A DNA stretch of 64,000 nt. Origin: an uncultured Myxococcales bacterium. Its GTDB lineage: Bacteria > Myxococcota_A > Bradymonadia > UBA4248. The DNA is taken from positions 127,057 to 191,056 of the forward strand of contig CAYVQF010000003.1 of NCBI GenBank assembly GCA_964454015.1, written 5' to 3'. Both the position numbers and the translations under genes were made by a program. The notes beneath the pieces are model-generated. The model was not told the DNA's origin. It ran no database searches and was given only the letters and a program-made list of their open reading frames with translations. Numbering within the stretch: the first letter of the stretch is position 1; every line of letters begins with the position of its first letter. Shown one piece after another: positions 31,901-53,167 of the stretch.

Positions 31901-34156
31901 TTTCAAGGCGAGGTCAGCGGTGAACTCATGGAGCTCGCCGAAGCGGGCTTCGAGGTCTTCGAGTTGGAGGAGGAGGCGGGTCAGCTCCTCATCGCATCGC
32001 TGTGGGGTGTCACAGAGGGCGAGGGATGACTGTACGCTTTGGCCGAAGAGTTTGAAGTGGGCTGCGAACTCGGCCCGGTTTTCCAGGCTGAGGAGTTGTT
32101 GGTGGCGGCTGGTGATGAGGGCGCGGACGCGGTTTATCTGGGAGAAGACCTCAGCGACCTGCTCCAAGATCTGGGTGCGTAGGGTGGGATCTGGCATTTC
32201 GAGGCCATTGATGACCTCGATGAGTAGCTGTAGTCCTTGGGCGAGGGTGTCCAATTTCTCAGCAGGTGCCTTGAGCTTGTTGGCCTTTTGGATTTGATCG
32301 AGATCAGCGCCGAGGGCATCGATTTGTTTTCGCAGGGGGGTGAATGCTTGCCCGGCGAGGAGGAATTGGACGCATGCTTTGCCGACGTTGTCTGCGTAGC
32401 CGACGAGTTCACGCTCGAGTTTGTCGAGGGCGTCGCGGTCGATGTTGCGGACTTCGCGCAGGGTGATGAGGTGTCCGCGTTGGTTGCGCAGGGCGGTCAT
32501 GGTTTCGAGGAAGCGATCGATCTGGTTCCATTGGGTGGGATCCAGGCCGCGGAGGAGGGTGCGCTGGCTCTCCTGGGCGGCGGCGAGGGCTTGGGCGGCG
32601 GCTTGGGCGAGGCGCAGCACTTTCTCGAACTCATCGATGACTTGTTCGGTGGTGCGTCTGATTTCGAGGAGGCTGTCGCGGAAGGCGATTTCTGGATGTC
32701 CCAGCCAGTCGTAGGTGTCGAGGACGCGGTTGGTGAAGGCGATGAGGTCTTCGAAGGTGCGGCGTGAAGGTTTGGCTGCCTGTACCATCCTTTGTACGGT
32801 GAAGGCATCGGAGATGCCCCGGACGAGGTCGGCATTTCCAATTTTGGCCAGGAATCCGCCGCGGTTAGGTTGGCGGGCGGCTTCTTCGGCGCTGACGAAG
32901 GGTGTTTGCCAGACTTGCACGTTGTGGGTGCGGGTGGGTTCATCGCTGGTGTTGCGGAAGACGATCATTTTGCCGTCTTCGAAGATGGAGTAGCCGTTGC
33001 CAACGATAGGGGTTTGGATTTCTTTTCTGACGAGGTTGTAGGGGTAGAGGAAGTAGGTGCCTTCGTGTTCGCGATGGAAGACGTAGAGGACGTCTTCACC
33101 GTTGGGTGAGCGGATGGCCCTCTTGAAGCGCAATCCTGTGGTGTCGGCGTCGAAGACTTTGTAGTCACCCGTTTGGAGGTAGTAGCCTCCGGGGAAGATG
33201 ATGCCGTGGTCTTCGGGGAGTTGGACGCAGGCTTGTCCGATGGCGTCTTGCCGAACGGCTTCGGCAGTGCGGGTGTTGAAGATGAAGTGTCGGGTGATGC
33301 TTTCGCGGTAGGGCGTGACTTTGAGGAGGATGAGGGCGCCGAGTTTGGCGTAGTGGAAGGGAGCGTCGTCGAGGGACTGGTTGGGATCATCGACGAGCTC
33401 GGCATAGACGCCTTCGCCGCTTTCCGTGTTGTTCTCTACTTTTATGGTGAGGTCACCGCCGACGGTCTCGACGAAGACTTCGTTGAGGATGTTGACATGG
33501 GGGTGGCGTCCTCGGACGTAATTTTCAGGCGTGGTTTCCTGCCAGGTGAAGTCGTGGGCAGGGGGGAAGACATGGTCGCGTTCGCCGCGGTTGTCGACGT
33601 AGGTGATTTGTCCTTGGCTGTCGAAAGTCCAGCGAAAGACTTTGATATCTGGTGAGCTGGTCGAGATCTGGAAGACAGCCAGGAGGTAGCCGTCGTTGAC
33701 GCGGAGTTGTTGGAGCTTGGAGTCTTTGTAGTACTCGCGCAGTTCTTTGAAGTCGCGTTGGAAGCGGGCGTCGACGAGGAAGCCATCGACGGCGCTGATG
33801 TCGATTTCGGCGAGATCGAAACCTTCAGGCGTCGTTGCGAAGCCATGGAGGGAGAAGATGTCGCGGACAGAGGTCTCGGTCTTGAGGCCCATGAAGACGT
33901 TGTAGCCGAGGAGCAGATTGCCTTTGACGTTGACGATGTCGCGGAGCACGCAGTTGTGTTCGGTGCGGACGCGTTCTCTGCCGATACGCTCCAGCTCGGT
34001 GCCGCCAAAGTTCTGCTGTCGGTTCTTGTTGAGTTGTTCGGCGTGCTCTGCCAAGCGACGGGCTTGTTGGACGAGCCGTTGGTGGATGACGTCATAGTTG
34101 CCGAGATCGATGTCGGTGCTGTGCTCATTCTGGGTTGCGTTTGCTTTGTCCACCAT
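28919..34156 (-). CDS. giant (1745 aa) protein with a single MoxR/dynein-type AAA+ module near its C-terminus (hypothetical)
   Basis: Walker A ISPPGYGKTTLME (aa ~1296). Walker B VMLYLDDIQH. MoxR-like sensor region VVMAGNPYTEAGEKFQIPDMLANRADTYNL (nt ~29750-30300). The N-terminal 420 aa are beta-rich, and about 800 aa of Q/L/R-rich helical or coiled-coil sequence follow. No TM or signal peptide. Confidence 0.85.
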   Translation of the reverse strand: MVDKANATQNEHSTDIDLGNYDVIHQRLVQQARRLAEHAEQLNKNRQQNFGGTELERIGRERVRTEHNCVLRDIVNVKGNLLLGYNVFMGLKTETSVRDIFSLHGFATTPEGFDLAEIDISAVDGFLVDARFQRDFKELREYYKDSKLQQLRVNDGYLLAVFQISTSSPDIKVFRWTFDSQGQITYVDNRGERDHVFPPAHDFTWQETTPENYVRGRHPHVNILNEVFVETVGGDLTIKVENNTESGEGVYAELVDDPNQSLDDAPFHYAKLGALILLKVTPYRESITRHFIFNTRTAEAVRQDAIGQACVQLPEDHGIIFPGGYYLQTGDYKVFDADTTGLRFKRAIRSPNGEDVLYVFHREHEGTYFLYPYNLVRKEIQTPIVGNGYSIFEDGKMIVFRNTSDEPTRTHNVQVWQTPFVSAEEAARQPNRGGFLAKIGNADLVRGISDAFTVQRMVQAAKPSRRTFEDLIAFTNRVLDTYDWLGHPEIAFRDSLLEIRRTTEQVIDEFEKVLRLAQAAAQALAAAQESQRTLLRGLDPTQWNQIDRFLETMTALRNQRGHLITLREVRNIDRDALDKLERELVGYADNVGKACVQFLLAGQAFTPLRKQIDALGADLDQIQKANKLKAPAEKLDTLAQGLQLLIEVINGLEMPDPTLRTQILEQVAEVFSQINRVRALITSRHQQLLSLENRAEFAAHFKLFGQSVQSSLALCDTPQRCDEELTRLLLQLEDLEARFGELHEFTADLALKRDEVRDAITARKQSLVDERNRRATNLMSAAKRILEGAQRRLKAIQTEDELNAYYAADPMIHKLHQVAQHLEDIDDTLKAEEVRSQAKKLRQDALRTLRDRRDLYEEGQALIKLGRHRFAVNTQPIEVSMVPREHEGQTTMAIHINGTEFYAPVEDQDFARTLPFWGHNIISESDQVYRAEFLCAEIIAAAEERRQGLSLESLSAAMAAPEGLLGLVREFAANRFDEAYERGVHDHDTALILDKVLTMRHGAGLLRYPPQSRAWAALFWAYASPDFPKEQVHRHALSLFRLRQSFANRPEHQRFVNQLSQHLEHFFQDAALQADAQQRNLAAWYLFEQIGSAQQPRFPISSDAQRLGAAFLDYLRTSAQQQAFDDDLAALSAQPATQFSVARAWLDAFAANHPEQPRDATDEATLVMLARDRLTMEVSSARLQTEVQGLIGNHHRIVNRTLTLRLDDFYQRLERFRQEWVPGYRSYRQLRTKLLQRFRERVRLDDFAPNVMTSFVRNRLINDVYLPLIGNNLAKQIGAAGEGKRTDLMGLLLLISPPGYGKTTLMEYVGNRLGFIFMKINGPALGHAVRSLDPAEAPNATARQEVEKINLALEMGNNVMLYLDDIQHTHPELLQKFISLCDAQRKIEGVFQGRTKTYDFRGKKFCVVMAGNPYTEAGEKFQIPDMLANRADTYNLGDILQGRDDLFALSYIENALTSNQVLAPLATRDSNDIYKLIAMAQGEDVASTDLVHGYSSVEIAEIVTIFKHLFHIQAQLLQVNLAYIASASMDDAYRTEPRFQLQGSYRNMNKITEKVVAAMTPQEVQSLIDEHYTAEAQTLTNGAEANLLKLRELTHQLTPQQQTRWEQIKNDFRRIKVMGGKEDDPVARVSGAISQIGDEIVNLRQGMQNSLPQALQSLTGMVNELANPQIALNVTTPPPAGIEELLAQQVAIIERTLIPIVRTATQNSGDQDALQAKLREVLDYLRHIDTALRDGGWTWLDTPTK

Positions 34157-35608: not shown

Positions 35609-37750
35609 GTGCCCGCTTCTTGGGAGGTGGAGTTTAGTATGCGCAGCGTTTTGAGTCACCCGTGGTGTGTGGTGTTGACGATTCCTCTTTTGGTGGCGTT
35701 GGTGGGGGTCGTGACGGGTGCTTATGTCTATCGCTCGATGCGTTCCATGCTCTTGGAGATGGCAGGAGCTCGCTTCTCCGATAGCGCGGCCAGTGCGTCG
35801 ACGCATGCACAGGCCTTGTTCATGCAGGGTCCGGAGATTCTCTCTTCGTTGCGTTTGGATGTGGAGAGCGGTGAGGCCGTGGTGACCTTCCAGCTTGGGA
35901 CCCGCTTCGTGGAGATCATGCGTCATCGTCCGGGAGTAGCTTGGCTGTCGTACAGCAGCCCAGAGGGGCGCTTCGTTGGCGTTTCGCGCTTGGGAACGTC
36001 AGCGTTTTTACTTACGGAGCAGGAGGTTCTGCGTGAAGGTGTGACGCGTCACCGGGCGTGGGAGCAGGCGGGCTCTTCGTGGCAGTTGGTGCGCGATGAT
36101 GAAGCGGATGACTATGACCCGCGGTTGCGCCCCTTTTATCAGGTTGCCACGCAGACAGAGGGGATCGCCTGGACGGCGCCCTATGTGTTTTTCAACCGCG
36201 GGGTGCCGGGTATTTCTGCGGTACAGGGGGTGCGGGATCCTTTGGGGCGTTTGGTCGGGGTGTTGACCGTCGATTTCGATGTGAGCTCGTTGTCGGCGGC
36301 GCTGACGGCCAGTGCCGAGGCGAGCGGTGTACATATGTTTTTGTATACGGACGCGGACGCGCTCCTAGCGTTGTCGGGGGCGCGCTTCGACGCGACCCCG
36401 GGGCGTGGGAGTGAGGGTGAGTTGGCGGCGTTGGCGGCCTTCGCTGACCCCATGGTGGGGGCCTATTTTGCTGCGCGTCCCAGTGTCGAGGAGGCGCGCG
36501 GGCGATTTCCCGTAGAGGTGGCTGGCGAGGTCTTCCTGGCGCGTGAGGCATCTTTTTCACCGGATGGTCAACACGCTTGGTTCGTAGGCGCCATGGCGCC
36601 GCAGGCGCGTCTGATGGCGCCAGCGACGGCGATGACCCGGTCGAGCCTGTGGTTGGGGCTGGGGGGGTTATTGTTGGTGATGGCCGTATCGGGCGTCTAT
36701 GCGCGTCACATTGCGTGGGCGCGGGGTGTGGCGGCCGAGGCCAAGGCTGAGGCCAGCGAGGCGAGGCAGCGACTGGTCGAAGTGGGCAGCTATCGTTTGG
36801 TGCGGAAGTTGGGGGCGGGCGGTATGGGGGAGGTTTGGGAAGCCGAGCACGTGTTATTGGCGCGCCCTGCGGCGATCAAGTGGATACGGCGTGGGAGCAA
36901 AGGCGTGGCAGGGGAAGAGGCCAACGCGCGTTTCAAGCGGGAGGCGTTGGCGACGGCACGTTTGACGAGTCTGCATACGATCAAGGTCTTTGATTTCGGC
37001 GTGAGTGAGGAGGGGGACTTTTTTTATGTCATGGAGTTGTTGGACGGTGCGGACTTGGACACTTTGGTTCGGCAGTGTGGCCCTTTCCCTGCGGGGCGGG
37101 TGGTGCACGTTTTGATGCAAGTGTGTGCCTCTTTGGCCGAGGCGCATGAGGCAGGCTTGATACATCGGGACGTCAAGCCAGCGAACATATATCTATGCAA
37201 GCAGGGTGTAGCCCATGATGTGGTGAAGGTGCTGGATTTTGGCTTGGTCGAGGAGGTGGGGGCCGAGGAGGAGCAGCGGGTCTTTCAGGGTGGTACCCCG
37301 GCTTACATGGCGCCGGAGGCGATCACTGGGGGGGAGATCGATGGGCGTTCGGATTTGTATTCCTTGGGCTGTGTGGGCTACTGGCTGTTGACGGGGAGCG
37401 CGGTCTTTTCAGCGCCTTCTCCTTCGGCGATGTTGATGCAGCAGGTGCAGGCGATGCCCGAGCGCCCGACTTTGCGGCTAGGTCGGGAGGATTTGCGCGA
37501 TGTGGAAGCGGTGATCATGGCGTGCTTGGCCAAGGATCCCCAGGATCGTCCGGCAGATGCTTTGCATCTTTTACGGTTATTGGGGGAGGTGAACGTGCCT
37601 GCTGACCAGCAGTGGTCGCAGGGTTTTGCGCGGCGGTGGTGGCAGGAGTACGGGGAGGCGCAGGCGGGCTTGGATCTTTTAGCGGCCTACCAAGAAGAGA
37701 AGACCTTGGTGCGCAAGGACTTGGGTGGTCCTGGTCCTTGGCAGCATTGA
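35609..37750 (+). CDS. receptor-type serine/threonine protein kinase (N-terminal TM, extracytoplasmic sensor, second TM, Hanks kinase)
   Basis: TM1 WCVVLTIPLLVALVGVVTGAYVY. Periplasmic region of about 300 aa. TM2 LWLGLGGLLLVMAVSGVYA. Kinase motifs are intact (GAGGMGEV, AIKWI, HRDVKPAN, DFG, GTPAYMAPE). Confidence 0.85.
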   Translation: MPASWEVEFSMRSVLSHPWCVVLTIPLLVALVGVVTGAYVYRSMRSMLLEMAGARFSDSAASASTHAQALFMQGPEILSSLRLDVESGEAVVTFQLGTRFVEIMRHRPGVAWLSYSSPEGRFVGVSRLGTSAFLLTEQEVLREGVTRHRAWEQAGSSWQLVRDDEADDYDPRLRPFYQVATQTEGIAWTAPYVFFNRGVPGISAVQGVRDPLGRLVGVLTVDFDVSSLSAALTASAEASGVHMFLYTDADALLALSGARFDATPGRGSEGELAALAAFADPMVGAYFAARPSVEEARGRFPVEVAGEVFLAREASFSPDGQHAWFVGAMAPQARLMAPATAMTRSSLWLGLGGLLLVMAVSGVYARHIAWARGVAAEAKAEASEARQRLVEVGSYRLVRKLGAGGMGEVWEAEHVLLARPAAIKWIRRGSKGVAGEEANARFKREALATARLTSLHTIKVFDFGVSEEGDFFYVMELLDGADLDTLVRQCGPFPAGRVVHVLMQVCASLAEAHEAGLIHRDVKPANIYLCKQGVAHDVVKVLDFGLVEEVGAEEEQRVFQGGTPAYMAPEAITGGEIDGRSDLYSLGCVGYWLLTGSAVFSAPSPSAMLMQQVQAMPERPTLRLGREDLRDVEAVIMACLAKDPQDRPADALHLLRLLGEVNVPADQQWSQGFARRWWQEYGEAQAGLDLLAAYQEEKTLVRKDLGGPGPWQH

Positions 37751-39642: not shown

Positions 39643-41868
39643 GTGCCCGGGGCAGGTTTGAAAGGGCGAGGGTGCGCGTGCTATGTTCGGCAGGTTTTGT
39701 TGCAGGAAGCGGACATGGTTTCGTGGGTAACGTGGTTTGGCGCAGCAAAGGAGGTGGCGATGGTCGTGGGAGCCGCGGTGGAGACGGACGCAGGGGACTT
39801 AGCGGCCGCAGTGGTGGCAAACCAAGCCAATCTTTGCTGGGAGTTCGCGAGGATGGAGCGCCGGATCGCGGCGTGGGAATGCCTGCGTGAGGATGGCGAC
39901 AAGGGAGCCTATGTGTCTTTTGTGACCACCCAAGAGGCCGAGCGTCTGGCGGTGCGAGCGCGGCGGCGTGAGGCGGTGCGTGCGGGGGCGGACCTGGCGC
40001 TGGAGCGCTTGGTGTCGCGCTATGGTTTGAGCGCGGCTGAGGAGGAGGTGTTGGTGGCGGCGTTGGCTTTTGCGACCAGTGGAGGGTTGCGGCAGGCGCT
40101 GATTCGGGCCCAGGGCAATTTGCTGAAGTCCTATTTGGAGGTGGGTTTTTTGGCGGACTTCCTCTTTCCGCAGGAGACATACGCTGCCGAGTTGGGGTGG
40201 TTGTACCCCGATGGGGTGTTGCTTCGGGAGGGTTTGCTGGTCTTGGAGGTGCCACGGGAGAGTGGTATTGCGGCGCCGTTGTTAGGACAATCCCTCTCGG
40301 TGCCGCATTTCGTGGCGGCCTATGTGCAAGGCCGAGCGGAGCTCGATGAGCGCTTGGTGAGTTTTGGCCGTTACGTGGCGCATGCTGCGCTGGTCGGCGA
40401 GGTGGTGCTGCCCGAGGAGACGCGGCGGAGTTTAGAGGCCTTCATGGGTGGCTTTCCGCAGGCGGAGGGGGTGCTGGTGCTTGGGGAGCGTCCTTGGCGC
40501 TTGTTGGTGTCAGGCCCCCAGGGATGTGGCAAGACGGTCCTGGTGGAGAGCTTGGCACGGTCTTTTGGGCGCCCACTGTTGACGGTGCATTTGGAGCGTT
40601 TGGTGGGTGAGGGTGACGCCCGGGGCTTGCTGGGCCTGGTGCAGAGCAACGCCGCGTTGCATGGTGCGGTGCTGCATTTGTCCATGCCCGAGACGCTGCT
40701 GGAGTCGGACGCGCGCTGGAGCGGGCCTTTGGTGGCCTTGATGGAGAGTTATGGGGGCTTGTGTGTGCTGGAGACGCAGCGTGCGGATCGGCTGGACGAC
40801 AGTTTCGAGTCGTTGATCCATTTCTCCATTGCGGTGGAGCGTCCCGATGCGGACGGTCGGGAGCAGCTTTGGCTGTCGATGTTGCCGCGGGAGGTGGGGC
40901 TAGCGGCGGATGTCGCCTTGGGTGAGCTTTCGGTGAGCTATGAGTTGAGCGGGGGTCAGATCCGCGCGGCCGTGGCGTGGGCGGTGCAGCGCAGTTTGGC
41001 TCGGGGGGTGGCGGAGCTCAGGCATGCCGATCTGGAGGCTGGGGCGCAGAGTCAGCTTCGGGCCAAGCTGGAGGAGTTCACCGAGGCGAGCCGGGTGAAG
41101 TTGACGATGGCGCACTTGGTTCTGCCGAGCGAAGCGATGACGGAGGTGCAGGAGTTTTTGGATGCGTGCCGGCATCGGGCCAAGGTGATGTACGAGTGGG
41201 GTTTTGGTAAGCGTTTGGTGACGGGTAAAGGATTGGTGGCGCTCTTTGCGGGTGAGGCGGGCACGGGCAAGACCTTGTGTGCAGAGATCCTGGCGAATGA
41301 GCTGGATTTGCGTTTGCAGATCGTGAGCATCCCCAAGGTGGTGAGCAAGTGGGTGGGCGAGACGGAGAAGAACATCCGCAAGGTCTTTTCCCACGCTCGG
41401 GCGCAGAACTCGATGCTCCTTTTCGATGAGGCGGACTCGCTTTTCGCCAAGCGGGTCAAGGTAGAGCGCTCGCAGGACCACTACCAGAACATGGAGGTGA
41501 ACATGTTGCTGCAGGAGGTGGAGCGTTTTGATGGGATCATCATCATGACGACCAACCTGGAGGCCAACATCGACAGGGCTTTTGAGCGGCGCATTTTGTT
41601 CAAGATCGAGTTTCCGAGTCCCGAGGCGGCGGAGCGTGAACGGATTTGGCAGACCTTGATTCCGCAGAAGACCCCGGTGGACGAGTCTTTGGATTTCGAG
41701 TTTTTGGCGGAGCGTTATGAGCTGACGGGTGGACAGATAAAGAACGCCATCGTCCGTGCGGCATATCGTTGTAGCGCCGCAGGACACGGATTGAATCAAG
41801 AGGCCTTGGAGTTGGCGGCGCAGCAGCAGGCGAGCGCTGCGGGGCGCTTGGCGCGTGAAGTCTATTGA
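39643..41868 (+). CDS. tandem AAA ATPase (degenerate N-terminal AAA + canonical C-terminal classic-clade AAA, CDC48/FtsH-like)
   Basis: First module has a degenerate P-loop (SGPQGCGKTVL). Second module has GEAGTGKT, DEADSLF and an SRH region (IIIMTTNLEANIDRAFERR), typical of classic AAA. The start may be at 39715 (MVSWVTW). Confidence 0.85.
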   Translation: MPGAGLKGRGCACYVRQVLLQEADMVSWVTWFGAAKEVAMVVGAAVETDAGDLAAAVVANQANLCWEFARMERRIAAWECLREDGDKGAYVSFVTTQEAERLAVRARRREAVRAGADLALERLVSRYGLSAAEEEVLVAALAFATSGGLRQALIRAQGNLLKSYLEVGFLADFLFPQETYAAELGWLYPDGVLLREGLLVLEVPRESGIAAPLLGQSLSVPHFVAAYVQGRAELDERLVSFGRYVAHAALVGEVVLPEETRRSLEAFMGGFPQAEGVLVLGERPWRLLVSGPQGCGKTVLVESLARSFGRPLLTVHLERLVGEGDARGLLGLVQSNAALHGAVLHLSMPETLLESDARWSGPLVALMESYGGLCVLETQRADRLDDSFESLIHFSIAVERPDADGREQLWLSMLPREVGLAADVALGELSVSYELSGGQIRAAVAWAVQRSLARGVAELRHADLEAGAQSQLRAKLEEFTEASRVKLTMAHLVLPSEAMTEVQEFLDACRHRAKVMYEWGFGKRLVTGKGLVALFAGEAGTGKTLCAEILANELDLRLQIVSIPKVVSKWVGETEKNIRKVFSHARAQNSMLLFDEADSLFAKRVKVERSQDHYQNMEVNMLLQEVERFDGIIIMTTNLEANIDRAFERRILFKIEFPSPEAAERERIWQTLIPQKTPVDESLDFEFLAERYELTGGQIKNAIVRAAYRCSAAGHGLNQEALELAAQQQASAAGRLAREVY

Positions 41869-44909: not shown

Positions 44910-46412
44910 ATGAGCGAAGATGGGGGCGGCAGGATGCCTGGTCCACAAGAGGACAAGCGCGAGGGAATGCGGATGGCACAGGAAGAACTCACCGAGACCA
45001 CACTAGCCCTACAGCACTACTACGATGTGCGCAGCGTTCAACGGCGTCACTTTTTGGGGACGCTTTACGATGCAGTGGAGCAGCCCTTTGGGCGTCCGGT
45101 CTTGCTTTGGGTACTGGATCAGTTGCCCGAAATGGGGGCTGCGGCGGAGAGCATCGAGCGCTTCGAGCAGGCCATTGTCGCCGGGACCCACCTGCGCCAC
45201 GCGCACCACCAGCGGCCCTTGGACTTTGGGACGCTGAGCGGCGGGGTCCCGTTTCTAGTCATGGATGGTCTGGAGGGGCGCAGCCTGCGCGGGCTCATCT
45301 CTGAGCGGGGACGTTTGGAGCCTTGGGAAGCGCTGCGGGTGCTGGAGCAGGTGGCCGACTTGGTGCGCAGTGCTCATGCCCTCGGTCTGAGCCATTTGGG
45401 TTTGGACGCAGAGCGAATTTGGGTGCGTGATGTGGGGCGCATGGAGGTCTCTGTCTTTGGCTTGGGCCTGGCGTTTACGCGCTCGGAGGTCTTGGCCATG
45501 AGCGGGATCGCCGTTGAGGTGGAGATGATGCGGCATTTGCCGCCCGCGGCCTTTGGCGTCGCTGCAGCGGAGGTTGTGGGAGAAGGCGCCGAGGATGGCG
45601 TGGCGGCGCGGATGGCTGCTGACTTCTATGGCGTCGCGGCGATTTACTACGAGTGTCTGAGCGGTCGGCACCCCTACTTTCGCGATGATCGCGATGTAGG
45701 TGATGGCGTGTTGGCGATCATGCGCGAGGAGCCGCCTTCCTTGGCTCAGCATTTTGGCTTCGGGGAGGGGCTCAGTGGGGTGGTGGCGCAGGGTCTGGGT
45801 CGCGACCCGGTGGCGTCCTTCGAGGGTGTGGGAGCCTTTGTCGAGGCGGTGCGGTTACAGGTGGGGCCAGAGGTTCTGCAGGCTGCGGCGCAGGCGGCGA
45901 CGCCTTTTGGGGCGACGCAGACGGTGGTCCAGGCGGCGGTGGTGGAGGAGGCCGCGGCTCGGGTGTGGTCTTGGCGCGGTGTGCCCGTGTCGTGGTTGGT
46001 GGGCGCTGCCTTGGCGGTGGTGGTGGCCCTGGTGCTGACCTGGGGCATGAGCAGTCGCACGGAGTTGTTGGGTGCCATCGCAATGCCTGAGCTCATTCCG
46101 CAGGCGGGTCCGGGCGAGGGGATCGACGTGGTGCTGGTGAGTGAGGTGGCGGCTTATGAAGGGGAGCGTGGTCGACCGACCCGGGCGGACCTCTACGTGG
46201 TCAACCTGAAGGGCGAGGCGATGCGGGTTGGGCAAACGCCCTATGTGTTGCGCAACCAGCAGGAGGGGGCGCGGCTGCACTTCGTGATGAGCGCGCCTGG
46301 GGTGCGGCCCAAGCAGTTGGCGTTGCGGGTGAGCGATATGGGGGGGCGTTCGATGGTGGTGTCTGAGCAGCTCACCTTGGCGGAGCGTCACACGGCGCAG
46401 CTCGTCCCCTGA
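44910..46412 (+). CDS. pseudokinase-domain membrane protein (kinase fold lacking catalytic motifs) + TM + periplasmic domain
   Basis: Kinase-like fold is recognisable (glycine-loop position YDVRSVQRRHFLGTLYD, hinge PFLVMDGLEGRSL). HRD is replaced by SHLGLD, DFG by VFGLG, and the VAIK lysine is absent. TM VSWLVGAALAVVVALVLTW. C-terminal extracytoplasmic domain of about 130 aa. Confidence 0.7.
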   Translation: MSEDGGGRMPGPQEDKREGMRMAQEELTETTLALQHYYDVRSVQRRHFLGTLYDAVEQPFGRPVLLWVLDQLPEMGAAAESIERFEQAIVAGTHLRHAHHQRPLDFGTLSGGVPFLVMDGLEGRSLRGLISERGRLEPWEALRVLEQVADLVRSAHALGLSHLGLDAERIWVRDVGRMEVSVFGLGLAFTRSEVLAMSGIAVEVEMMRHLPPAAFGVAAAEVVGEGAEDGVAARMAADFYGVAAIYYECLSGRHPYFRDDRDVGDGVLAIMREEPPSLAQHFGFGEGLSGVVAQGLGRDPVASFEGVGAFVEAVRLQVGPEVLQAAAQAATPFGATQTVVQAAVVEEAAARVWSWRGVPVSWLVGAALAVVVALVLTWGMSSRTELLGAIAMPELIPQAGPGEGIDVVLVSEVAAYEGERGRPTRADLYVVNLKGEAMRVGQTPYVLRNQQEGARLHFVMSAPGVRPKQLALRVSDMGGRSMVVSEQLTLAERHTAQLVP

Positions 46413-46422
46413 GGGGACGCTT

Positions 46423-48345
46423 TCAAGGCTGGATGCGTGGCCCAGGGAGGCGGAGGTCGCCGTCGCGGCGGGTGTAGCCTTTGCGGTCGAGGAGCTCCGC
46501 CACGGGGATGAGGTGTTTGCGCGAGAGGCCGGTGAGGTCCCTGAGCTCGCCGATGGAGAGCTGGGGGTGCTCGCTGAAGTGCCGCTGCACCAGGCTCACG
46601 GCGTTCTCCCATGCGGGTGCGCTGACAATCATGTCGGGCCGGATACGGATGAGGCGTCCTTCATCGATGAGTCGCTTGGCGATGACCTTACACAGGGGCA
46701 GGGGTGCCGTGAGGCGTGTCTGGATTTCTTCGATGGCGACGCCGGCCATGCCGAGCTCGTCGAAGGCGGCGGTCATGGCGTTCTCCAAGTGCTCGTCACG
46801 CGGGGGTGGCAGCCGGGCCAGGCGGAGGGCTTCGCCATAGCGGCTGAGCCAGCGCTCCTTCTCGAAGCGCAGCAGGAAGCGGTCGAAGAGGTTCTTGTCC
46901 AGCCCGACTCGCAGGCTGGTGCGTGCTTCTTCTTTGCCGATGCCCGTGGCGTGAGGCGAGGCCTGATGGTGTTCTTCGAGGCAGCGTTGGAGGCGTAGGC
47001 GCAGCTCGTCGAGGGCGCTGCGAGCGAATCTTTGTTCGTCCGTGTCGGCGAGGGCGAGGAGCTCGCCCCGCTTGGTGAGTTGGGCGACAACGGCGAGGAT
47101 TTTGGCGAGGGGGAAGGGGAGGAAGGTGAGGAGTTCTTTGGGGCGGATGCCGCTGACGCCAGCGAGCTCGGCGCGGGCCATGATGGCCCGCTCCGCATCG
47201 TCCGAGGCGAGGGCTTGGAGGCGGGCGGCGTGGGCGGCGAGGTGACGCCGGCGGAAGCGGGGCGCGAGGGGATCCAGGACGCGGCCACCGGCGATGGTTT
47301 TGCCGTAGTTTTTCAGATTTTCGAAGCCGCGGAGGACGAAGCGGTCGCCAGCGATGACCGTGACGGCTTCCTGGGTGCGAATTTGGACGAGGGCCGTCTC
47401 TCCTGGGGCGAGGCGTTGCTCCTGGATGAGGATGATCCTGGCGTTGACTTGGCGGGTGAGGGTGTGGAGCAGGGCCGGGGCGCGATCGGCGATGCCTTTG
47501 TCGACGTGAGGTAGGACTTCGAGCTCGGCGTCGAAGCACAGGCTCTGCTGGAGGCGCCCCGTGGGCGCGACGAGGTCGCCGCGGTGCACGTCATTGTGGG
47601 CAATTCCCGGGAGGTTGATGGCGACCCTGGAGCCAGGCATGACCCGCTTGAGGTCTTCGCCGTGAACGGTGAGTTTGCGGATTTTGGTCTCTTTGCCGTC
47701 GCCGGGGGTGATTTCGACATCATCGCCGAGGGCCATTGGGCCGCCGAGGAGGGTTCCGGTGACGATGGTGCCAAAGCCTTTGAGGGTGAAGACGCGGTCA
47801 ATGGGGAGACGGGGGACGTTGTCGGCGGTCCTGCTCTCGCGGAGGTTGTCTTTGAGCCACGCCGTCAGGGCAGCGCGGGTGCGGTCCAGGGTGGCTTCGT
47901 TCTTCACCGAGCAGTGGAGAATGGCGGCGTCGTGGAGGAAGGTGTCTTTGAAGGCCGTGCGGAGATCGTCTTCCACCAAGAGGAGCCATTCTTCGTCGAC
48001 GAGATCGATCTTGGTCAGCACCACGATCCCGCGTCGCACGCCCATGAGGCGGCAGATTTCGAGATGCTCGCGGGTCTGGGGCATGATGCCTTCGTCAGCG
48101 GCGACGACCATGAGGACCAGATCGAGCCCGCCAGCCCCCGCGACCATGTGGCGGATGAAGCGTTCGTGTCCGGGGACGTCGACGATGCCGACGCGGTGGG
48201 CGCCGATGTCGATCCAGGCGAAGCCCAGCTCGATGGTGATACCGCGGGCCCTCTCCTCTTTGAGGCGTGAGGTGTTGATACCGGTGAGCGCTTCGATGAG
48301 GGAGGTTTTCCCATGGTCGACGTGGCCAGCAGTTCCGAGGATCAC
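46423..48345 (-). CDS. selB: selenocysteine-specific elongation factor SelB
   Basis: GTG start. G1 [10 protein letters not shown]3 [10 protein letters not shown]-Tu-like domains II and III, followed by C-terminal winged-helix repeats. 640 aa. Confidence 0.9.
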
Positions 48346-48597: not shown

Positions 48598-49266
48598 ATG
48601 GAAAGGTCTTTGTTTTCGTTGTGTTTGCGTGCGGTGTGCCTGTTCGTGGCGGTCGCCGCAGCGAGCGGTTGTGCCTCGTTTTCGGCGATGCAGACGGCCC
48701 ACACCGTCGCCGAGGGTGAGGTGCGCTACGCAGTCTCCCTTCAGGGCGTGGGTGGGGGTGGGGCGCCGCTGAGCTCTTTTGAGCCAGGTGTGGAAGGCTC
48801 GGTGCGCTATGGGATTGCGGAGGATTGGGACGTGGGCCTGAAGCTGCACCTGTTGGGTGCGCAGGCTGGCGCGAAGGTGCAATTGATGCGCGGCGACTTT
48901 GATTTGGCGCTGGCGCTGGAGGGGGGCTATGGGTGGGTGTGGAGCGCCGGTATCGATGCGCCGCGATCCCACGTGCTGGTGGTGCGGTTGCCGCTGCTGA
49001 TGGAGCAACACTTGCACGAGATCGTGGGTTTGACTTTCGGGCCAGAGCTGAGTGGGGTGTGGGCCGTTGCCGGGGCGGAACGGGGCGATGTCTATGGCGA
49101 CACGGCGCTCTATGGTGGAGGTCGTCTGGGTGTGGTGTTGCGCTTGCTGTCGAATCTGTGGTTGATGCCTGAGGTGATGGGCCAGGTGTCCTTGGTGGGT
49201 GGTGACTCCTTTGGGAGCAACATCATCTGGCAAGGAGGGATGACGTTCTTTTTTGGTGCGCTTTGA
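48598..49266 (+). CDS. lipoprotein, possibly a small beta-barrel (hypothetical)
   Basis: Start trimmed to MERSLFSLCLRAVCLFVAVAAASGCASF. Alternating-hydrophobic strand pattern. Its stop overlaps the PAP2 gene start (ATGA). Confidence 0.5.
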   Translation: MERSLFSLCLRAVCLFVAVAAASGCASFSAMQTAHTVAEGEVRYAVSLQGVGGGGAPLSSFEPGVEGSVRYGIAEDWDVGLKLHLLGAQAGAKVQLMRGDFDLALALEGGYGWVWSAGIDAPRSHVLVVRLPLLMEQHLHEIVGLTFGPELSGVWAVAGAERGDVYGDTALYGGGRLGVVLRLLSNLWLMPEVMGQVSLVGGDSFGSNIIWQGGMTFFFGAL

Positions 49267-50009
49267 TGGGTACAGAGAAGCGCATTGGGGCGAAGGTGAC
49301 AGTGCTGCGCGCATGGTGGGATCGGGTGTGGCTGGCGCTGGCCTGGCGCTATTTGAGTCATTCTCTGATGTTGGGCTTGGCGTTGTTGAACGAGCTGCGA
49401 CCAGCGCCGCAGCTTCCGGACACGGTATTGTCGCTCATTCCCTATGTGGCGTGGGTGGATAGGCACAACTACACGATCTGGCTGGTGCTCTATTTTCCTT
49501 TGGCGCTGTGGTTGTGGCGGCGCGATCGGGACGCTTTCGTTCATTTTCTCTATGTGGGCGGGCTCCTGAGTTTGGTGCGTGGGCTGTGCATTGGTCTCAC
49601 GGGTCTGGGTCCGGTGCACTTGGACGACGTCAACGTGGGGCTGAGTTACGCGGAGCTGTGGCAGGCTTGGTTGCGTTTGGTCAATCCCTTGGATGCGCTG
49701 ATGAGTGACGCGCCTCACGTCTATTTGACGAAGGATCTCTTCTTCTCGGGCCACACGGCGACGACATTCTTGCTCTGGCTCTATTGTCGCAAAGAGCCAG
49801 GCTTGGGCTTGGCGGCGCTTTTGGCCCACGTCGTCGTCGTGGCGTCGGTGTTTTTTGCGCACCTCCACTATACCATCGATGTGGTCGGGGCGTGGGCGAT
49901 CACGGGCTGTGTGTTTGTGCTGGCGCGCCGGATCGGGTATTCATCGTCTAGGTCTCGTGTTGCCATGGCGGGACCTGACGAGTCTGGGAACGTGGAGGTG
50001 GCGGGGTGA
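49263..50009 (+). CDS. PAP2 (type-2 phosphatidic-acid phosphatase) superfamily membrane protein
   Basis: Multi-TM. PAP2 motif C2 and C3 equivalents (FFSGHTATTF and HLHYTIDVVGAWAI). Confidence 0.65.
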   Translation: MMGTEKRIGAKVTVLRAWWDRVWLALAWRYLSHSLMLGLALLNELRPAPQLPDTVLSLIPYVAWVDRHNYTIWLVLYFPLALWLWRRDRDAFVHFLYVGGLLSLVRGLCIGLTGLGPVHLDDVNVGLSYAELWQAWLRLVNPLDALMSDAPHVYLTKDLFFSGHTATTFLLWLYCRKEPGLGLAALLAHVVVVASVFFAHLHYTIDVVGAWAITGCVFVLARRIGYSSSRSRVAMAGPDESGNVEVAG

Positions 50010-50062: not shown

Positions 50063-52315
50063 TTGATGGACGAGCACGGGAAAAGTTCAGGCGCGCGGTG
50101 TCCGAGCTGTGGCGCGGTGGCCAGTGATGAGTGGTGTGGGCAGTGCGGTAGCCGGGTGACTGGCTCTGCTGAGGCTTCGCGGCGCTGGCTCGAGCCGGGC
50201 GAGGTGGTTCGTTTTGGCCCGGCACCGGAGGTGCTATCGAGTGTGGCGGCTGCGCCAGCGGTGACCCAGGCTGAAGAGAAGCCGGCAGGCGGCGAGTGGG
50301 ATGCTGCGGCGCGTACCCGTTTGGATATTCCCGTGGCGTCGATTTTGGCGACGGAGGTGGCCCGGGCTGAGGCGACGAGTACGGAGCCGCAGCCGAGCAT
50401 CAAGAGTGAGGAAGTGCAGGCCGTGGGCAGCCCAGCCCTGGAGGAAGGGGCGGTCTCAGCCGATCTCATGGGCCTCGGTGGTGGTGTTTTAGCGGCCGCG
50501 CGGAGTGCCTTCGAGCGCATTGGCGCGCCACTGGTTCATGCGTCGCCGCCGCCCATGCCGGCAGGCGTCTCCGTTGAGGCGGAGGCCGACGGCGCGGATG
50601 ATCTGGGTCGTCACGACACGATGGTGGCCATGCCCATCGTGCGTCCGGCGACGGACGCCGCCGAGTGCGAGCCGGGCCAATATCTGGTCCGCATCGGTAA
50701 GTCTCGCGAATCCTATTCGCAGCGCCGCCTGTGGGAAGCCGAGGCGGTGTCGGGTGAGCACCACTATGTGGTCGAGGAACGCCGTCTACTCGCGGGTGAA
50801 GATCCCGAGGTGGCGGTGGCCCTGGAGACACCCGACCCGGTGTCGAGTCGCTTCATTTTTGGCCCCTTGTCGCGCTTTCTCCACGACGGTCGCGTGTTGA
50901 CCCTCTATCCCGTGGCGCGTGGTCAGTCGGTGGAGGCTTGGCGCCGCACCCTGGGCCGGGAAGCGGCAACGCCACGGGCGATTCTCAATGTTCTCCGCCC
51001 CATCATCCTGGCGGTCGCTGAGATGCATCGGGAGAACCGGGTGCATCTCCAGATCAACCCGCGGACGGTGTGGCTCTTTCAGGGTAATGTCGGCTTCACT
51101 GGCGCCGACTACTTGGAGCCGTTGCCGGTGGAGCGCAGCCGCTTCAGGGCGACGTTGGGTTTTTCGGCGCCGGAAGTCTTTGGCCGCTCCAAGCAGAGTA
51201 TCGACAAAGGAGCGGACATCTATTCCCTGGGGGCGATGGCCTATTTCTTGGTCGCCGGGGTGATCCCACCGGTGGCACCTGAGACGGCTTATGCGCCAGC
51301 GGTGTCGCCGCGTGATTTTCGGCCGACCTTTCCCGTGGGGTGGACCGAGGCGATTTTGCGGGCCACTGACCCCGTTCCGGGGCGTCGTTTTGCCACGGCG
51401 GAGGCCTTCCTGGAGGCGTTGACCACAGGCTATGCTCAGATCCGGGCTCGCTCTTCCTTCGAGCAAGGGGTGAGCGTGATTGGCGAAGCCGAGCGCCATA
51501 TTGGCTACTCCAAAAAGAAGCGCTCGCCCGTGAACCAGGATCAGGTCTTTTTTGCCCAAGATCCGCTGCGGCGGCGCGTGATGATGGCTGTCGCCGATGG
51601 CGTCTCCACGGCGACCTATGGCTCGGGGGATTTGGCGAGCGGCTTTTTGATCCGGCGCGTCGAGAGGGCGTGGGCCCTGCTGTGCGAGAGCGGAGATGGG
51701 CCCGACGCCGAGGATTTCTTGACGGACATCATCAACGGCGCCAACCGCGACATCTGCGAGCACGTGAACAACACCTGCGGGGCCCTGGCGGCGGGCCCGG
51801 CTCAGGTCATGGGTTCGACGGCGTTGGTCGCTTATGTCGAGGGCGGGGTGATGACCCTGGCATCGCTCGGCGATAGCCGTTGCTATATTGTGCGTTCCGA
51901 TCTCATGGAGTGTCTGACCCGGGACCACAACCTCTTCACGTTGAGTTTGGTGGAAGGGCTGAACATCGAAGACGTATTGGCCATGTCGCATGGGGATGCC
52001 TTGGCGCGTTGTCTTGGGACTTTCGACACGGATCAAGAGGGCTTCTTGGTCGCCATCGATCCTCCCTTCGACATCTACCGGCATCGTTTGCTACCGGGTG
52101 ACAATGTGCTGCTTTGTTCAGATGGGCTCTTTGACTACGCCGGCTCAACCTACGAAGAGAGCGAGAGCAATATTCGCCGCATCGTCTTGACCGAGTCGCA
52201 CCCAGGCATCGCGTGCCTCGAGCTCATTCTGCTCGCCAATCGCGGCGGCGGCGGAGACAACATCGGGGTGGCGCTGATGAAAGTTGGCGGCGAAGTGGTG
52301 CGCGGCGAAGCTTGA
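50063..52315 (+). CDS. zinc-ribbon + pseudokinase-like + PP2C-type Ser/Thr phosphatase fusion protein
   Basis: N-terminal CPSCG...CGQCG ribbon. Central kinase-like domain with APE (FSAPEVFG) and the alpha-F helix (DIYSLGAMAY), but HRD is replaced by HLQINPRT and there is no DFG. The C-terminal PP2C motifs are intact (AVADGVS, GSTALVAYV, LGDSRCYIV, LLCSDGLFD, GGGGDNIGVALM). Confidence 0.8.
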   Translation: MMDEHGKSSGARCPSCGAVASDEWCGQCGSRVTGSAEASRRWLEPGEVVRFGPAPEVLSSVAAAPAVTQAEEKPAGGEWDAAARTRLDIPVASILATEVARAEATSTEPQPSIKSEEVQAVGSPALEEGAVSADLMGLGGGVLAAARSAFERIGAPLVHASPPPMPAGVSVEAEADGADDLGRHDTMVAMPIVRPATDAAECEPGQYLVRIGKSRESYSQRRLWEAEAVSGEHHYVVEERRLLAGEDPEVAVALETPDPVSSRFIFGPLSRFLHDGRVLTLYPVARGQSVEAWRRTLGREAATPRAILNVLRPIILAVAEMHRENRVHLQINPRTVWLFQGNVGFTGADYLEPLPVERSRFRATLGFSAPEVFGRSKQSIDKGADIYSLGAMAYFLVAGVIPPVAPETAYAPAVSPRDFRPTFPVGWTEAILRATDPVPGRRFATAEAFLEALTTGYAQIRARSSFEQGVSVIGEAERHIGYSKKKRSPVNQDQVFFAQDPLRRRVMMAVADGVSTATYGSGDLASGFLIRRVERAWALLCESGDGPDAEDFLTDIINGANRDICEHVNNTCGALAAGPAQVMGSTALVAYVEGGVMTLASLGDSRCYIVRSDLMECLTRDHNLFTLSLVEGLNIEDVLAMSHGDALARCLGTFDTDQEGFLVAIDPPFDIYRHRLLPGDNVLLCSDGLFDYAGSTYEESESNIRRIVLTESHPGIACLELILLANRGGGGDNIGVALMKVGGEVVRGEA

Positions 52316-52360: not shown

Positions 52361-53167
52361 GTGATTGCCATGACCGCATATTTTGACCAGCCCTCGTGGG
52401 GCTTGGTGCTGTTCGATATCGACGACACCCTGGTGAATGTTGGGGGTGTGGGCGCCCAAGCTTTAGTGGATACCATCGCCGAAGTCTTTGGGGTTCAGAG
52501 CCCGCCCGATGCCGTGTCCATGGCCGGGCGTACCGATGCCGGCTTGGTGATGGAGATCATGGCGCGCGCTGGCCACTCGGAAGAGGCGGTTCGGTCGCGC
52601 CTGTCCGAGGTCTGGCGTCGGTATCCGCGGCGGCTGGCTGAGGGCTTGCGCGGGCGTGCGCCGCGGGCTTGTCCCGGCGTTTACGAGCTTCTGGAGCGCC
52701 TTGGCTGGGACGGGCGATGGCGCCTCGGTCTCCTCACGGGCAACATGGAGGCGGCAGGGTGGCTGAAGCTGTCGGCCGTGGGGCTGCAGGGCTTCTTCCC
52801 CTGTGGTGCTTTTGGTGACGAGGCCGAAGATCGCCTGGAGTTGGGGCCCCAGGCGCTGGCTGCTGCCGAGGTGGTATTCGGTTCCCCGACACCGCCGGAG
52901 CAGGTGGTGGTGATCGGCGACACCCCCCGTGATGTGGCCTGTGCCCGAGGGATTGGGGCGCGCGCCGTGGCCGTGGCTACGGGGCACTTCAGCGAAGAAG
53001 CCCTACAAGCCGCGGCGCCCGATCTCGTCCTCCCGGATCTCCAAGGGGCGCAGGAGGTCTTGGCGCGGCTGGCCACCTTCTTGCCGCCGCGCCCGCCGCG
53101 CAGCGCTCGAGGCGTGACGCCCAAACCCGTACGCAGTATCTTTGCTCGCCCCGACTGGGATGCGTGA
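52361..53167 (+). CDS. HAD-superfamily hydrolase
   Basis: Motif I LVLFDIDDTLV. Motif III/IV region (VVVIGDTPRDVACARGIGA). Confidence 0.75.
   Translation: MIAMTAYFDQPSWGLVLFDIDDTLVNVGGVGAQALVDTIAEVFGVQSPPDAVSMAGRTDAGLVMEIMARAGHSEEAVRSRLSEVWRRYPRRLAEGLRGRAPRACPGVYELLERLGWDGRWRLGLLTGNMEAAGWLKLSAVGLQGFFPCGAFGDEAEDRLELGPQALAAAEVVFGSPTPPEQVVVIGDTPRDVACARGIGARAVAVATGHFSEEALQAAAPDLVLPDLQGAQEVLARLATFLPPRPPRSARGVTPKPVRSIFARPDWDA

Follow-up and report, generated by a model that had tools for sequence, protein, structure and literature searches.

The gene analyzed here lies on the forward strand of contig CAYVQF010000003.1, from the assembly GCA_964454015.1 of an uncultured Myxococcales bacterium, and was studied within a stretch of 64,000 nucleotides of that contig (positions 127,057 to 191,056), which is called the window throughout and to which all coordinates refer. 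Its product combines an N-terminal zinc ribbon, a variable linker, a kinase-like domain that has lost its catalytic motifs, and a C-terminal phosphatase domain of the PPM/PP2C type. The features of this gene and of its neighbors are collected in Table 1. An original prediction, made from the sequence without database searches, had described the protein as a zinc ribbon and a catalytically dead kinase domain fused to an apparently active PP2C phosphatase, and all the motif strings that it quoted were found in the places it had given for them.

The choice of start codon rests on the homologues, which open in the same way as the predicted protein, with the pattern M-x6-10-CxxCG. These homologues share 46–62% identity with it over most of its length, with E-values down to 1e-235. 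The window has a GC content of 63% and long spurious open reading frames are frequent in it, such as an antisense frame of 432 codons at 50786–52084; the forward frame is coding beyond doubt, because it has long homologues and because the Pfam models PP2C_2 and PP2C match it above threshold. No frameshift or stop codon interrupts the gene, and no transmembrane segment was found in the protein, which is soluble and cytoplasmic. The public gene call P0001 (690 aa; positions 598–2670 of locus L001, corresponding to 50243–52315 of the window) is the identical gene; its start lies 59 codons past the ATG at 50066, so that the conserved zinc ribbon and WLxxGxxxxF motif are missing from the called protein.

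Table 1. Features of the zinc-ribbon–pseudokinase–PP2C gene and of neighboring genes, with positions in the window and residue numbers of the encoded protein.
Feature	Position	Strand	Residues	Remarks
Open reading frame	50063–52315	+		Opens at TTG
Coding sequence	50066..52315	+	749 aa plus stop	ATG 50066 is the likely start; supported by homologues
Zinc ribbon, C12-x2-C15-x8-C24-x2-C27	50099..50146	+	CPSC 12–15, CGQC 24–27
WLxxGxxxxF motif	50186..50215	+	W41–F50	Follows the ribbon; consensus of homologues; predicted ordered
Ala/Pro/Glu-rich linker	50216..50662	+	51–199	Variable, predicted disordered; AF2 and identity
Pseudokinase domain, Hanks-type fold	50663..51460	+	200–465	Profiles, hhalign, AF2
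β3 strand YVVEER	50765..50782	+		Glu237 at the ATP-binding Lys position; hhalign only
Catalytic-loop remnant HLQINPRT	51044..51067	+	327–334	Aligns with HRDxKPxN in both alignments
DFG remnant GFTGAD	51092..51109	+		Metal-binding Asp absent in both registers
SAPE through αF DIYSLG	51164..51232	+	367–370, 384–389	Structural landmarks, retained
PPM/PP2C domain	51473..52300	+	470–745	Pfam, NCBIfam, Foldseek
Motif I RSPVNQD (R486, D492)	51521..51541	+	486–492	N490, Q491 and D492 invariant
Motif II ADGVS (D511/G512, for M1 and M2)	51593..51607	+	510–514	Equivalent to tPphA D34/G35; invariant
GDSR (D603, third-metal ligand)	51869..51880	+	602–605	Equivalent to tPphA D119; invariant
SDGLFD (D686)	52118..52135	+	685–690	Equivalent to tPphA D193; invariant
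GGDNIG (D731)	52250..52267	+	729–734	Equivalent to tPphA D231; invariant
PAP2_C protein	49263–50009	+		Upstream flank
HAD hydrolase	52361–53167	+		Downstream flank
Active Hanks kinase, kinase and TPR	23729–26176	-
DUF3686 ('ATPase involved in DNA repair'), DUF7902 and AAA protein	28919–34156	-	1745 aa
Active Hanks kinase, Cache and kinase	35609–37750	+
Winged-helix and double-AAA protein	39643–41868	+	741 aa
Second kinase-like protein	44910–46412	+	500 aa	3.6 kb upstream; no HRD Asp ('SHLGLDAERIWV')
SelB, selenocysteine-specific elongation factor	46423–48345	-		All winged-helix domains

The pseudokinase and PP2C domains

The Hanks-type fold of the central domain was recognized by profile methods and by structure prediction. 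The Pfam Pkinase model falls below its threshold, with 25.7 bits against a cutoff of 31.7, and covers only residues 298–402 (profile positions 91–196). A HMMER profile built from the pseudokinase region matches the kinases PknB, PknA and PknE in the PDB with E-values of about 1e-14 to 1e-10, among them S. aureus PknB (4eqm, E=3.5e-14), and an hhalign comparison of a 29-sequence alignment of the pseudokinase with an active-kinase profile led by M. tuberculosis PknB gave a probability of 99.8% over 244 columns. In addition, an AlphaFold2 (AF2) model computed from the 29-sequence family alignment contains, in its kinase part, five N-lobe strands (β1–5), a short αC, αD/αE, β7–8, the APE helix, αF, and the terminal helices up to αI, with a predicted local distance difference test score (pLDDT) mostly of 86–98. 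In a Foldseek search of the PDB, the closest match to the kinase half was M. tuberculosis PknI.

The structural landmarks of the C-lobe are all present: Glu370 of the APE motif, the αF Asp of the DxxSxG signature in DIYSLG, and the αH-αI Arg, which is Arg441 (51386–51388). P369 and R441 are the only invariant columns of the pseudokinase in the 29-sequence alignment, and E370 is conserved in at least 90% of the sequences; E370 and R441 are presumably the salt-bridge pair between the APE Glu and the αH-αI Arg that staples the C-lobe of eukaryotic protein kinases. The invariance of P369 and R441 and the conservation of E370 therefore indicate that the core of the C-lobe is under structural selection. 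The landmarks on which the original prediction had recognized a kinase fold, APE and the αF motif DIYSLG, thus turn out to belong to a full kinase fold, as judged by hhalign, the AF2 model and the fold match to PknI.

The loss of the catalytic motifs was judged from two independent alignments, that of the HMMER profile to 4eqm and that of hhalign to the profile headed by M. tuberculosis PknB. Both place HLQINPRT opposite the catalytic loop (HRDIKPQN and HRDVKPAN in the active kinases), so that the catalytic Asp is replaced by Gln, the Lys by Asn, and the Asn by Thr. The Asp of DFG aligns with Gly343 in the HMMER alignment (GFT register) and with Gly346 in the hhalign alignment (GAD register). 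In the N-lobe, where the alignment is less certain than in the C-lobe, hhalign alone places the glycine loop GFGGMS opposite ESYSQR (E215–R220), which contains no Gly, in a register of low confidence, and no GxG was found anywhere in β1–β2. PknB K40, the Lys of VAVK, aligns with Glu237 in 'VEE', which is invariant in the close subfamily and occupies a position at which most members of the broad family carry an acidic residue.

An HRD-type motif is absent from all 40 family proteins collected (0/40), and across the family the columns of the catalytic loop and of DFG vary. We also looked for catalytic residues that are present in shifted positions. D348 lies a few residues past the DFG position, at a site where the close subfamily has D, E or H; members of a sister subfamily often have F-D/E-G after the DFG position, where the window protein has Thr at the acidic position. 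Since neither D348 nor F-D/E-G is conserved across the family, and since the window protein has that Thr, a shifted but active site is unsupported, and no HRD or DFG equivalent of this kind is conserved across the family. The earlier claim that the HRD Asp, DFG, the glycine loop and the β3 Lys have been lost is borne out, by both alignments for HRD and DFG and by hhalign for the glycine loop and the β3 Lys. By sequence, then, the kinase fold is intact and appears catalytically dead, with the residues for ATP binding, metal binding and phosphotransfer all lost.

The C-terminal domain is matched above threshold by the Pfam models PP2C_2 (residues 480–709, 41.3 bits against a cutoff of 24) and PP2C (29.8 bits against 20.3); the NCBIfam Stp1/IreP model NF033484 matches it with E=2e-29 and 102.7 bits, far below its equivalog cutoff of 230. 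Foldseek matched the PP2C half to Stp1 (S. agalactiae/S. aureus), M. tuberculosis PstP, tPphA and PppA at a target-normalised TM-score of 0.78–0.84; the fold matches 2pk0, 1txo, 2xzv and 5f1m have E-values of about 1e-15. The equivalents of the tPphA residues were taken from a phmmer alignment against the PDB, which pairs ADGVS with VADGMG, GDSR with GDSR, CSDGL with CSDGL, and GGGDN with GGRDN (window protein and tPphA, respectively); motif I, RxxNQD, equivalent to tPphA D18, was assigned by inspection. The metal ligands are invariant in the 29 aligned members, which are 28–57% identical to the window protein, and the flap region (RDHNLFTLSL..G....HGDALARCLG) is strongly conserved. The metal-binding Asp motifs attributed to this domain in the original prediction were thus recovered with every ligand in place, and a check for missing ligands found none. 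From its sequence and fold, the PP2C domain should be a working phosphatase.

The two halves are predicted to belong together. The full-length AF2 model has a mean pLDDT of 80 and a predicted TM-score (pTM) of 0.78 despite about 190 disordered residues, and its residues 200–745, which comprise the kinase fold and the PP2C domain, are very confident. When residues 196–749 were modeled alone (554 residues), the pLDDT rose to 91.7 and the pTM to 0.89. As this pTM was obtained for two domains of ~270 residues each, the relative orientation of the domains is confidently predicted, and the model suggests that the pseudokinase and the PP2C domain form one rigid body. The activation segment (residues 340–370) is predicted to be ordered, with a pLDDT of about 89–94. 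No PDB chain among the Foldseek matches spans both the kinase and the PP2C halves.

The N-terminal region is more loosely defined. The Pfam model Zn_ribbon_3 matches residues 11–31 weakly (13.9 bits against a cutoff of 27, E=0.039) and reaches E below 0.01 in six of the 29 aligned family members. The four ribbon Cys are kept in P0002, P0006, P0007, P0009 and L008, and the CxxC...CxxC pattern is shared by 13 of 17 further representatives of the family, so the ribbon motif pointed out earlier is genuine and most of the family has it. AF2 models residues 10–30 with moderate confidence (pLDDT about 75) and residues 41–50, which include a strand at 47–50, with a pLDDT of 92, the sequence around the latter being of low confidence; in the linker the pLDDT is below 50 at residues 55–140 and 151–186. 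The zinc ribbon and the WLxxGxxxxF motif, carried on this flexible tether, probably fold back onto the core as an accessory element. The ribbon may also provide a handle for nucleic acids or proteins, as the original prediction proposed.

Family distribution and genomic context

Relatives were sought by a word-indexed search of 5.8 billion proteins and by an exhaustive HMMER search, with a profile of the pseudokinase only, of 1.84 billion representatives clustered at 50% identity. The first returned nine relatives, including P0001, and a word-index pre-filtered search with a 29-sequence profile returned the same nine together with only two ordinary kinases. The HMMER search yielded four close representatives at E below 1e-100, and at least 22 further representatives with the same architecture were present among its best 150 matches. 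The architecture occurs in at least 26 clusters at 50% identity, all of them from metagenome-assembled genomes (MAGs) or metagenomes; those relatives that are named belong to MAGs labelled 'Deltaproteobacteria bacterium CG_4_9_14_3' and 'Myxococcales bacterium', and the relatives found include none from a cultured organism. Database names for the relatives are limited to 'protein phosphatase 2C domain-containing protein', 'PrpC' and 'protein phosphatase'. These proteins constitute a small, undescribed, MAG-restricted family of zinc-ribbon–pseudokinase–PP2C proteins.

The usual architecture of the family comprises the CxxC...CxxC ribbon, a kinase-like domain without HRD, and the C-terminal PP2C domain. 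Pfam PP2C_2 matches all 29 aligned members and Pkinase matches 23 of them. Within the close subfamily, mean pairwise identity is 0.64 in the PP2C domain, 0.53 in the C-lobe and 0.40 in the N-lobe of the pseudokinase, 0.33 in the zinc ribbon and 0.19 in the linker. The most conserved segments of the pseudokinase are GFSAPExFGR, D(I/V)(Y/F)SLG, and the Pro-rich PPVAPETAFAPAxxPRDFRPxFPxGW, which stands in for a shortened αG. A sister subfamily, to which three Myxococcales or 'proteobacterium' MAG loci (L006–L008) belong, carries an acidic insertion of 56–161 residues that follows the catalytic-loop remnant and precedes the APE motif. At all three loci a gene of ~700 aa for a secreted multi-Ig-like (ASH/PKD) protein (L006 4769–6847, L007 4791–6962, L008 662–2785) lies upstream of the pseudokinase-PP2C gene on the same strand; it has no counterpart upstream of the window gene. 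In another relative, the NCBI protein P0009 (545 aa, on a 223-kb contig), similarity stops in the middle of the PP2C domain; this early end could reflect a frameshift, a pseudogene or an error of MAG assembly.

In the window, the PAP2_C, pseudokinase-PP2C and HAD genes form a row of three phosphatase-superfamily genes on the same strand, separated by gaps of 46–57 bp. A 'phosphatase operon' made up of this trio was considered and rejected, as the trio is not conserved at related loci. More generally, no shared neighbor was found in the gene tables of L001–L004 or in tblastn searches of 12 window neighbors against L002–L009, in which the lone match reflected the GTPase-domain similarity of SelB and LepA. 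Because no operon partner is conserved, the functional unit appears to be the fusion itself. A link with the two active serine/threonine kinases of the window had been suggested in the original prediction; they lie 12–26 kb away, no neighbor is conserved at related loci, and the suggestion is not borne out. Membership in a defence system (PglW, MADS6, PD-T4-6, MkoA) was likewise rejected, since the NCBIfam/PADLOC matches (E 1e-4 to 1e-11) are partial and confined to the kinase fold, and no partner genes of these systems adjoin the pseudokinase-PP2C gene.

The second kinase-like protein of the window has a Leu/Trp-rich β3 region ('RPVLLWVLDQ') and one transmembrane helix, at about residues 358–376, C-terminal to the kinase-like domain. 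It was scored by Pfam Pkinase at E=7e-4, by hhalign against the pseudokinase profile of the present family at 93%, and by PADLOC PD-T4-6 at up to E=5e-29. These features agree with what has been published on the proteobacterial GLW family of pseudokinases (PMC12599244), and no homologue of the second kinase-like protein was found beside the homologues of the pseudokinase-PP2C gene at related loci. The presence of SelB implies that the organism uses selenoproteins. Over the whole window (1–64000) the GC skew is +0.23 and the AT skew −0.14, with similar values within genes of either strand, an asymmetry that is unusually strong for a bacterial chromosome; the GC skew is +0.14 at L006 and +0.19 at L007, and near zero at the other related loci.

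Proposed function and its alternatives

Hanks-type kinases are very numerous in myxobacteria and their relatives, and how PP2C enzymes choose their targets in kinase-rich cells is, to our knowledge, poorly understood. A 2010 survey of two myxobacterial genomes began from the expectation of matching numbers of phosphatases (PMC2887360). The reading that we consider probable is that the protein is an active Mn2+/Mg2+-dependent PPM/PP2C Ser/Thr phosphatase with a built-in pseudokinase as its docking or regulatory module. The pseudokinase would be unable to bind or use ATP and would serve instead for protein recognition. Its best conserved parts, namely the P+1/APE segment, αF and the Pro-rich replacement of αG, would correspond to the surfaces that active kinases use for their substrates and for pairing with other kinases. 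Active Hanks kinases or the substrates of such kinases, once phosphorylated, may be bound there and presented to the adjacent PP2C site, which would confer specificity on the phosphatase in a lineage with many kinases. A docking role is favored because selection is strongest on the substrate and partner surfaces of the C-lobe, while the nucleotide pocket is no longer maintained and has even turned acidic (Glu237). A conserved PP2C hard-wired to a kinase-shaped recognition domain would offer a concrete route into PP2C target choice, and the two domains, predicted to form one rigid unit (554 residues, pLDDT 92), look promising for structural and biochemical work.

A possible but doubtful extension of the docking proposal is that these proteins are 'anti-kinase' phosphatases, in which the dead domain would mimic a kinase protomer and heterodimerise with specific active Hanks kinases through a front-to-front αG/P+1 interface, placing the phosphorylated activation loop of the kinase in the PP2C site. 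If this were true, kinase-fold pairing rather than peptide sequence would set phosphatase specificity in the kinase-rich Myxococcota. Several points weigh against the docking account as a whole. The conserved αG region could be an internal interface rather than one that binds partners, and the gene context points to no partner kinase. The correspondences of the glycine loop and of the β3 Lys to Glu change depend on a low-identity profile alignment and on AF2 secondary structure. Motif II of the PP2C domain lacks the His of the classical DGMGGH and reads ADGVSTATYGSG, as is often the case in PF13672-type enzymes. Finally, the functional account of every family member is drawn from sequences and models.

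Regulation in cis is the alternative with the most to be said for it, even if we think it rather unlikely as the explanation of the family. The pseudokinase would autoinhibit or allosterically activate the PP2C domain, with its activation segment or αG region occupying or shaping the cleft or the flap, in a manner comparable to the mutual lock of SnRK2 and clade-A PP2C; release would come, for instance, from phosphorylation, from a ligand, or from a partner that acts on the zinc ribbon. The rigid inter-domain packing and the ordered activation segment predicted by AF2 would both suit such a switch, the insertion of the sister subfamily falls exactly in the activation segment and suggests a regulatory hot spot, and the SnRK2.6-HAB1 complex 3ujg is among the PP2C fold matches, though only via its PP2C chain (3ujg_B). 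However, neither a conserved Ser/Thr nor a ligand pocket emerged, and regulation alone gives no obvious need to keep the substrate-binding P+1/APE segment; the switch is, moreover, compatible with docking, so that the two need not compete.

The other alternatives concern the kinase fold itself, and all of them are unlikely, given that the family clearly conserves the fold but not a single polar residue of the active site. An atypical active kinase with migrated catalytic residues, as in WNK-type enzymes, would make the protein a bifunctional kinase/phosphatase. D348, 2–5 residues past the DFG position, the F-D/E-G of many sister-subfamily members and the conserved Arg220/221 on β2 speak for it; yet five independent catalytic elements are absent, a Glu replaces the ATP-binding Lys, no replacement residue is conserved in the 29 sequences, in which the invariant P369 and R441 are both structural, and in the window protein the acidic position of that motif is occupied by Thr, all of which makes this explanation very improbable. 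Repurposing of the fold for another chemistry beside the phosphatase, such as AMPylation (SelO) or glutamylation (SidJ), has precedent among bacterial kinase-fold proteins (PMC12599244 Table 1), but proteins of the SelO and SidJ types keep the active-site Lys, Asp and Asn, whereas no invariant polar active-site residue exists here, and hhalign places the domain in the canonical, unflipped register relative to Hanks kinases; we give this possibility scant weight. Scarcely credible, to our minds, is an evolutionary relic, that is, the decaying and now functionless remnant of a once bifunctional kinase-PP2C fusion: the lost catalytic motifs and the Pkinase score below the gathering threshold would agree with decay, but conservation over at least 26 clusters extends to the fold and to many segments of the surface, C-lobe identity far exceeds that of the unconstrained linker (0.53 against 0.19), AF2 confidence is very high, and the gene is free of frameshifts and stops.

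Comparison with known systems

With the bacterial PPM/PP2C phosphatases (Stp1/IreP, PstP, tPphA, PrpC and PppA) the window protein has in common the fold (TM-score about 0.8) and the metal motifs, including the third-metal Asp. It differs from them in motif II, which reads ADGVSTATYGSG where theirs is DGMGGH, and in about 470 N-terminal residues, comprising the ribbon, the linker and the pseudokinase, that all of these enzymes lack. Zinc-ribbon and PP2C proteins of the PRK14559 type, such as P0015, resemble it in having one or more N-terminal CxxC...CxxC ribbons, a linker that is acidic and disordered, and PP2C as the C-terminal domain; in contrast to the window protein, they have no kinase-like domain in between and carry the classical DGMGGH in the PP2C domain. 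The PRK14559 model matches only the PP2C part of the window protein, with 34 bits against a cutoff of 374, and P0015 was rejected as a degenerate relative, as it has no kinase-like domain.

Fusions of PP2C and kinase domains are on record in Pseudomonas and Deinococcus (Krupa & Srinivasan 2005, PMC1262709) and in Vibrio, as Sppsk1 (PMC11846826). In these the PP2C domain is N-terminal and the kinase C-terminal, and activity of the kinase has been reported or is assumed (PMC1262709, PMC11846826); Sppsk1 phosphorylates a host protein (PMC11846826). The window family is like them in joining a Hanks-type and a PP2C domain in a single bacterial polypeptide, and unlike them in its order, kinase-like domain and then PP2C, and in a kinase that appears to be dead throughout the family. 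A full-text literature search for pseudokinase together with PP2C found no paper on such a fusion, and a survey of myxobacterial phosphatases makes no mention of one.

Seven families of bacterial pseudokinases, ActPs1-3 (including MviN), GLW, CP1, DYD and DLHK, are described in an atlas and a review of 2025 (bioRxiv 10.1101/2025.01.12.632604; PMC12599244), neither of which mentions a PP2C-linked pseudokinase family. The present family resembles those catalogued in its Hanks fold, in the substitution of the VAIK Lys, the HRD Asp and the DFG Asp, in its fusion to a non-kinase domain and in a presumed non-catalytic role. It was set apart from the seven by their published descriptions rather than by family hidden Markov models: unlike the ActPs families it is not actinobacterial; unlike GLW, the window protein has no GLW motif, poly-Leu β3 or transmembrane segment; unlike CP1, it has no COG3899 ATPase; unlike DLHK, it has no retained HRD Asp and no helicase; and unlike DYD, it is not membrane-bound. 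The arrangement had been called poorly documented in bacteria, and this assessment holds, since the known fusions place PP2C in front of an active kinase and the 2025 survey mentions no PP2C-linked pseudokinase. The family would be an eighth, enzyme-linked one beside the seven, for none of which a phosphatase partner has been characterised.

Beyond bacteria, the SnRK2 and clade A PP2C proteins of plant abscisic acid signalling (PDB 3UJG) offer a model for docking, in which a kinase fold and a PP2C form a tight and specific pair. That pair is formed in trans, and its kinase is active and is itself the substrate, whereas in the window protein the link is covalent and the kinase apparently dead; the likeness concerns the pairing of the two folds. 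In RNase L, in the JH2-JH1 unit of JAK and in the kinase-homology domain of receptor guanylyl cyclases, a dead or nearly dead kinase regulates or targets a fused catalytic domain, the outputs being those of an RNase, a kinase and a cyclase, and several of these pseudokinases still bind nucleotide. The window protein has a common logic with these systems, its homology to them being limited to the kinase fold. A pseudokinase that steers a fused enzyme is an established principle, and the novel part of the present family would be the pseudokinase module built into a PP2C phosphatase.

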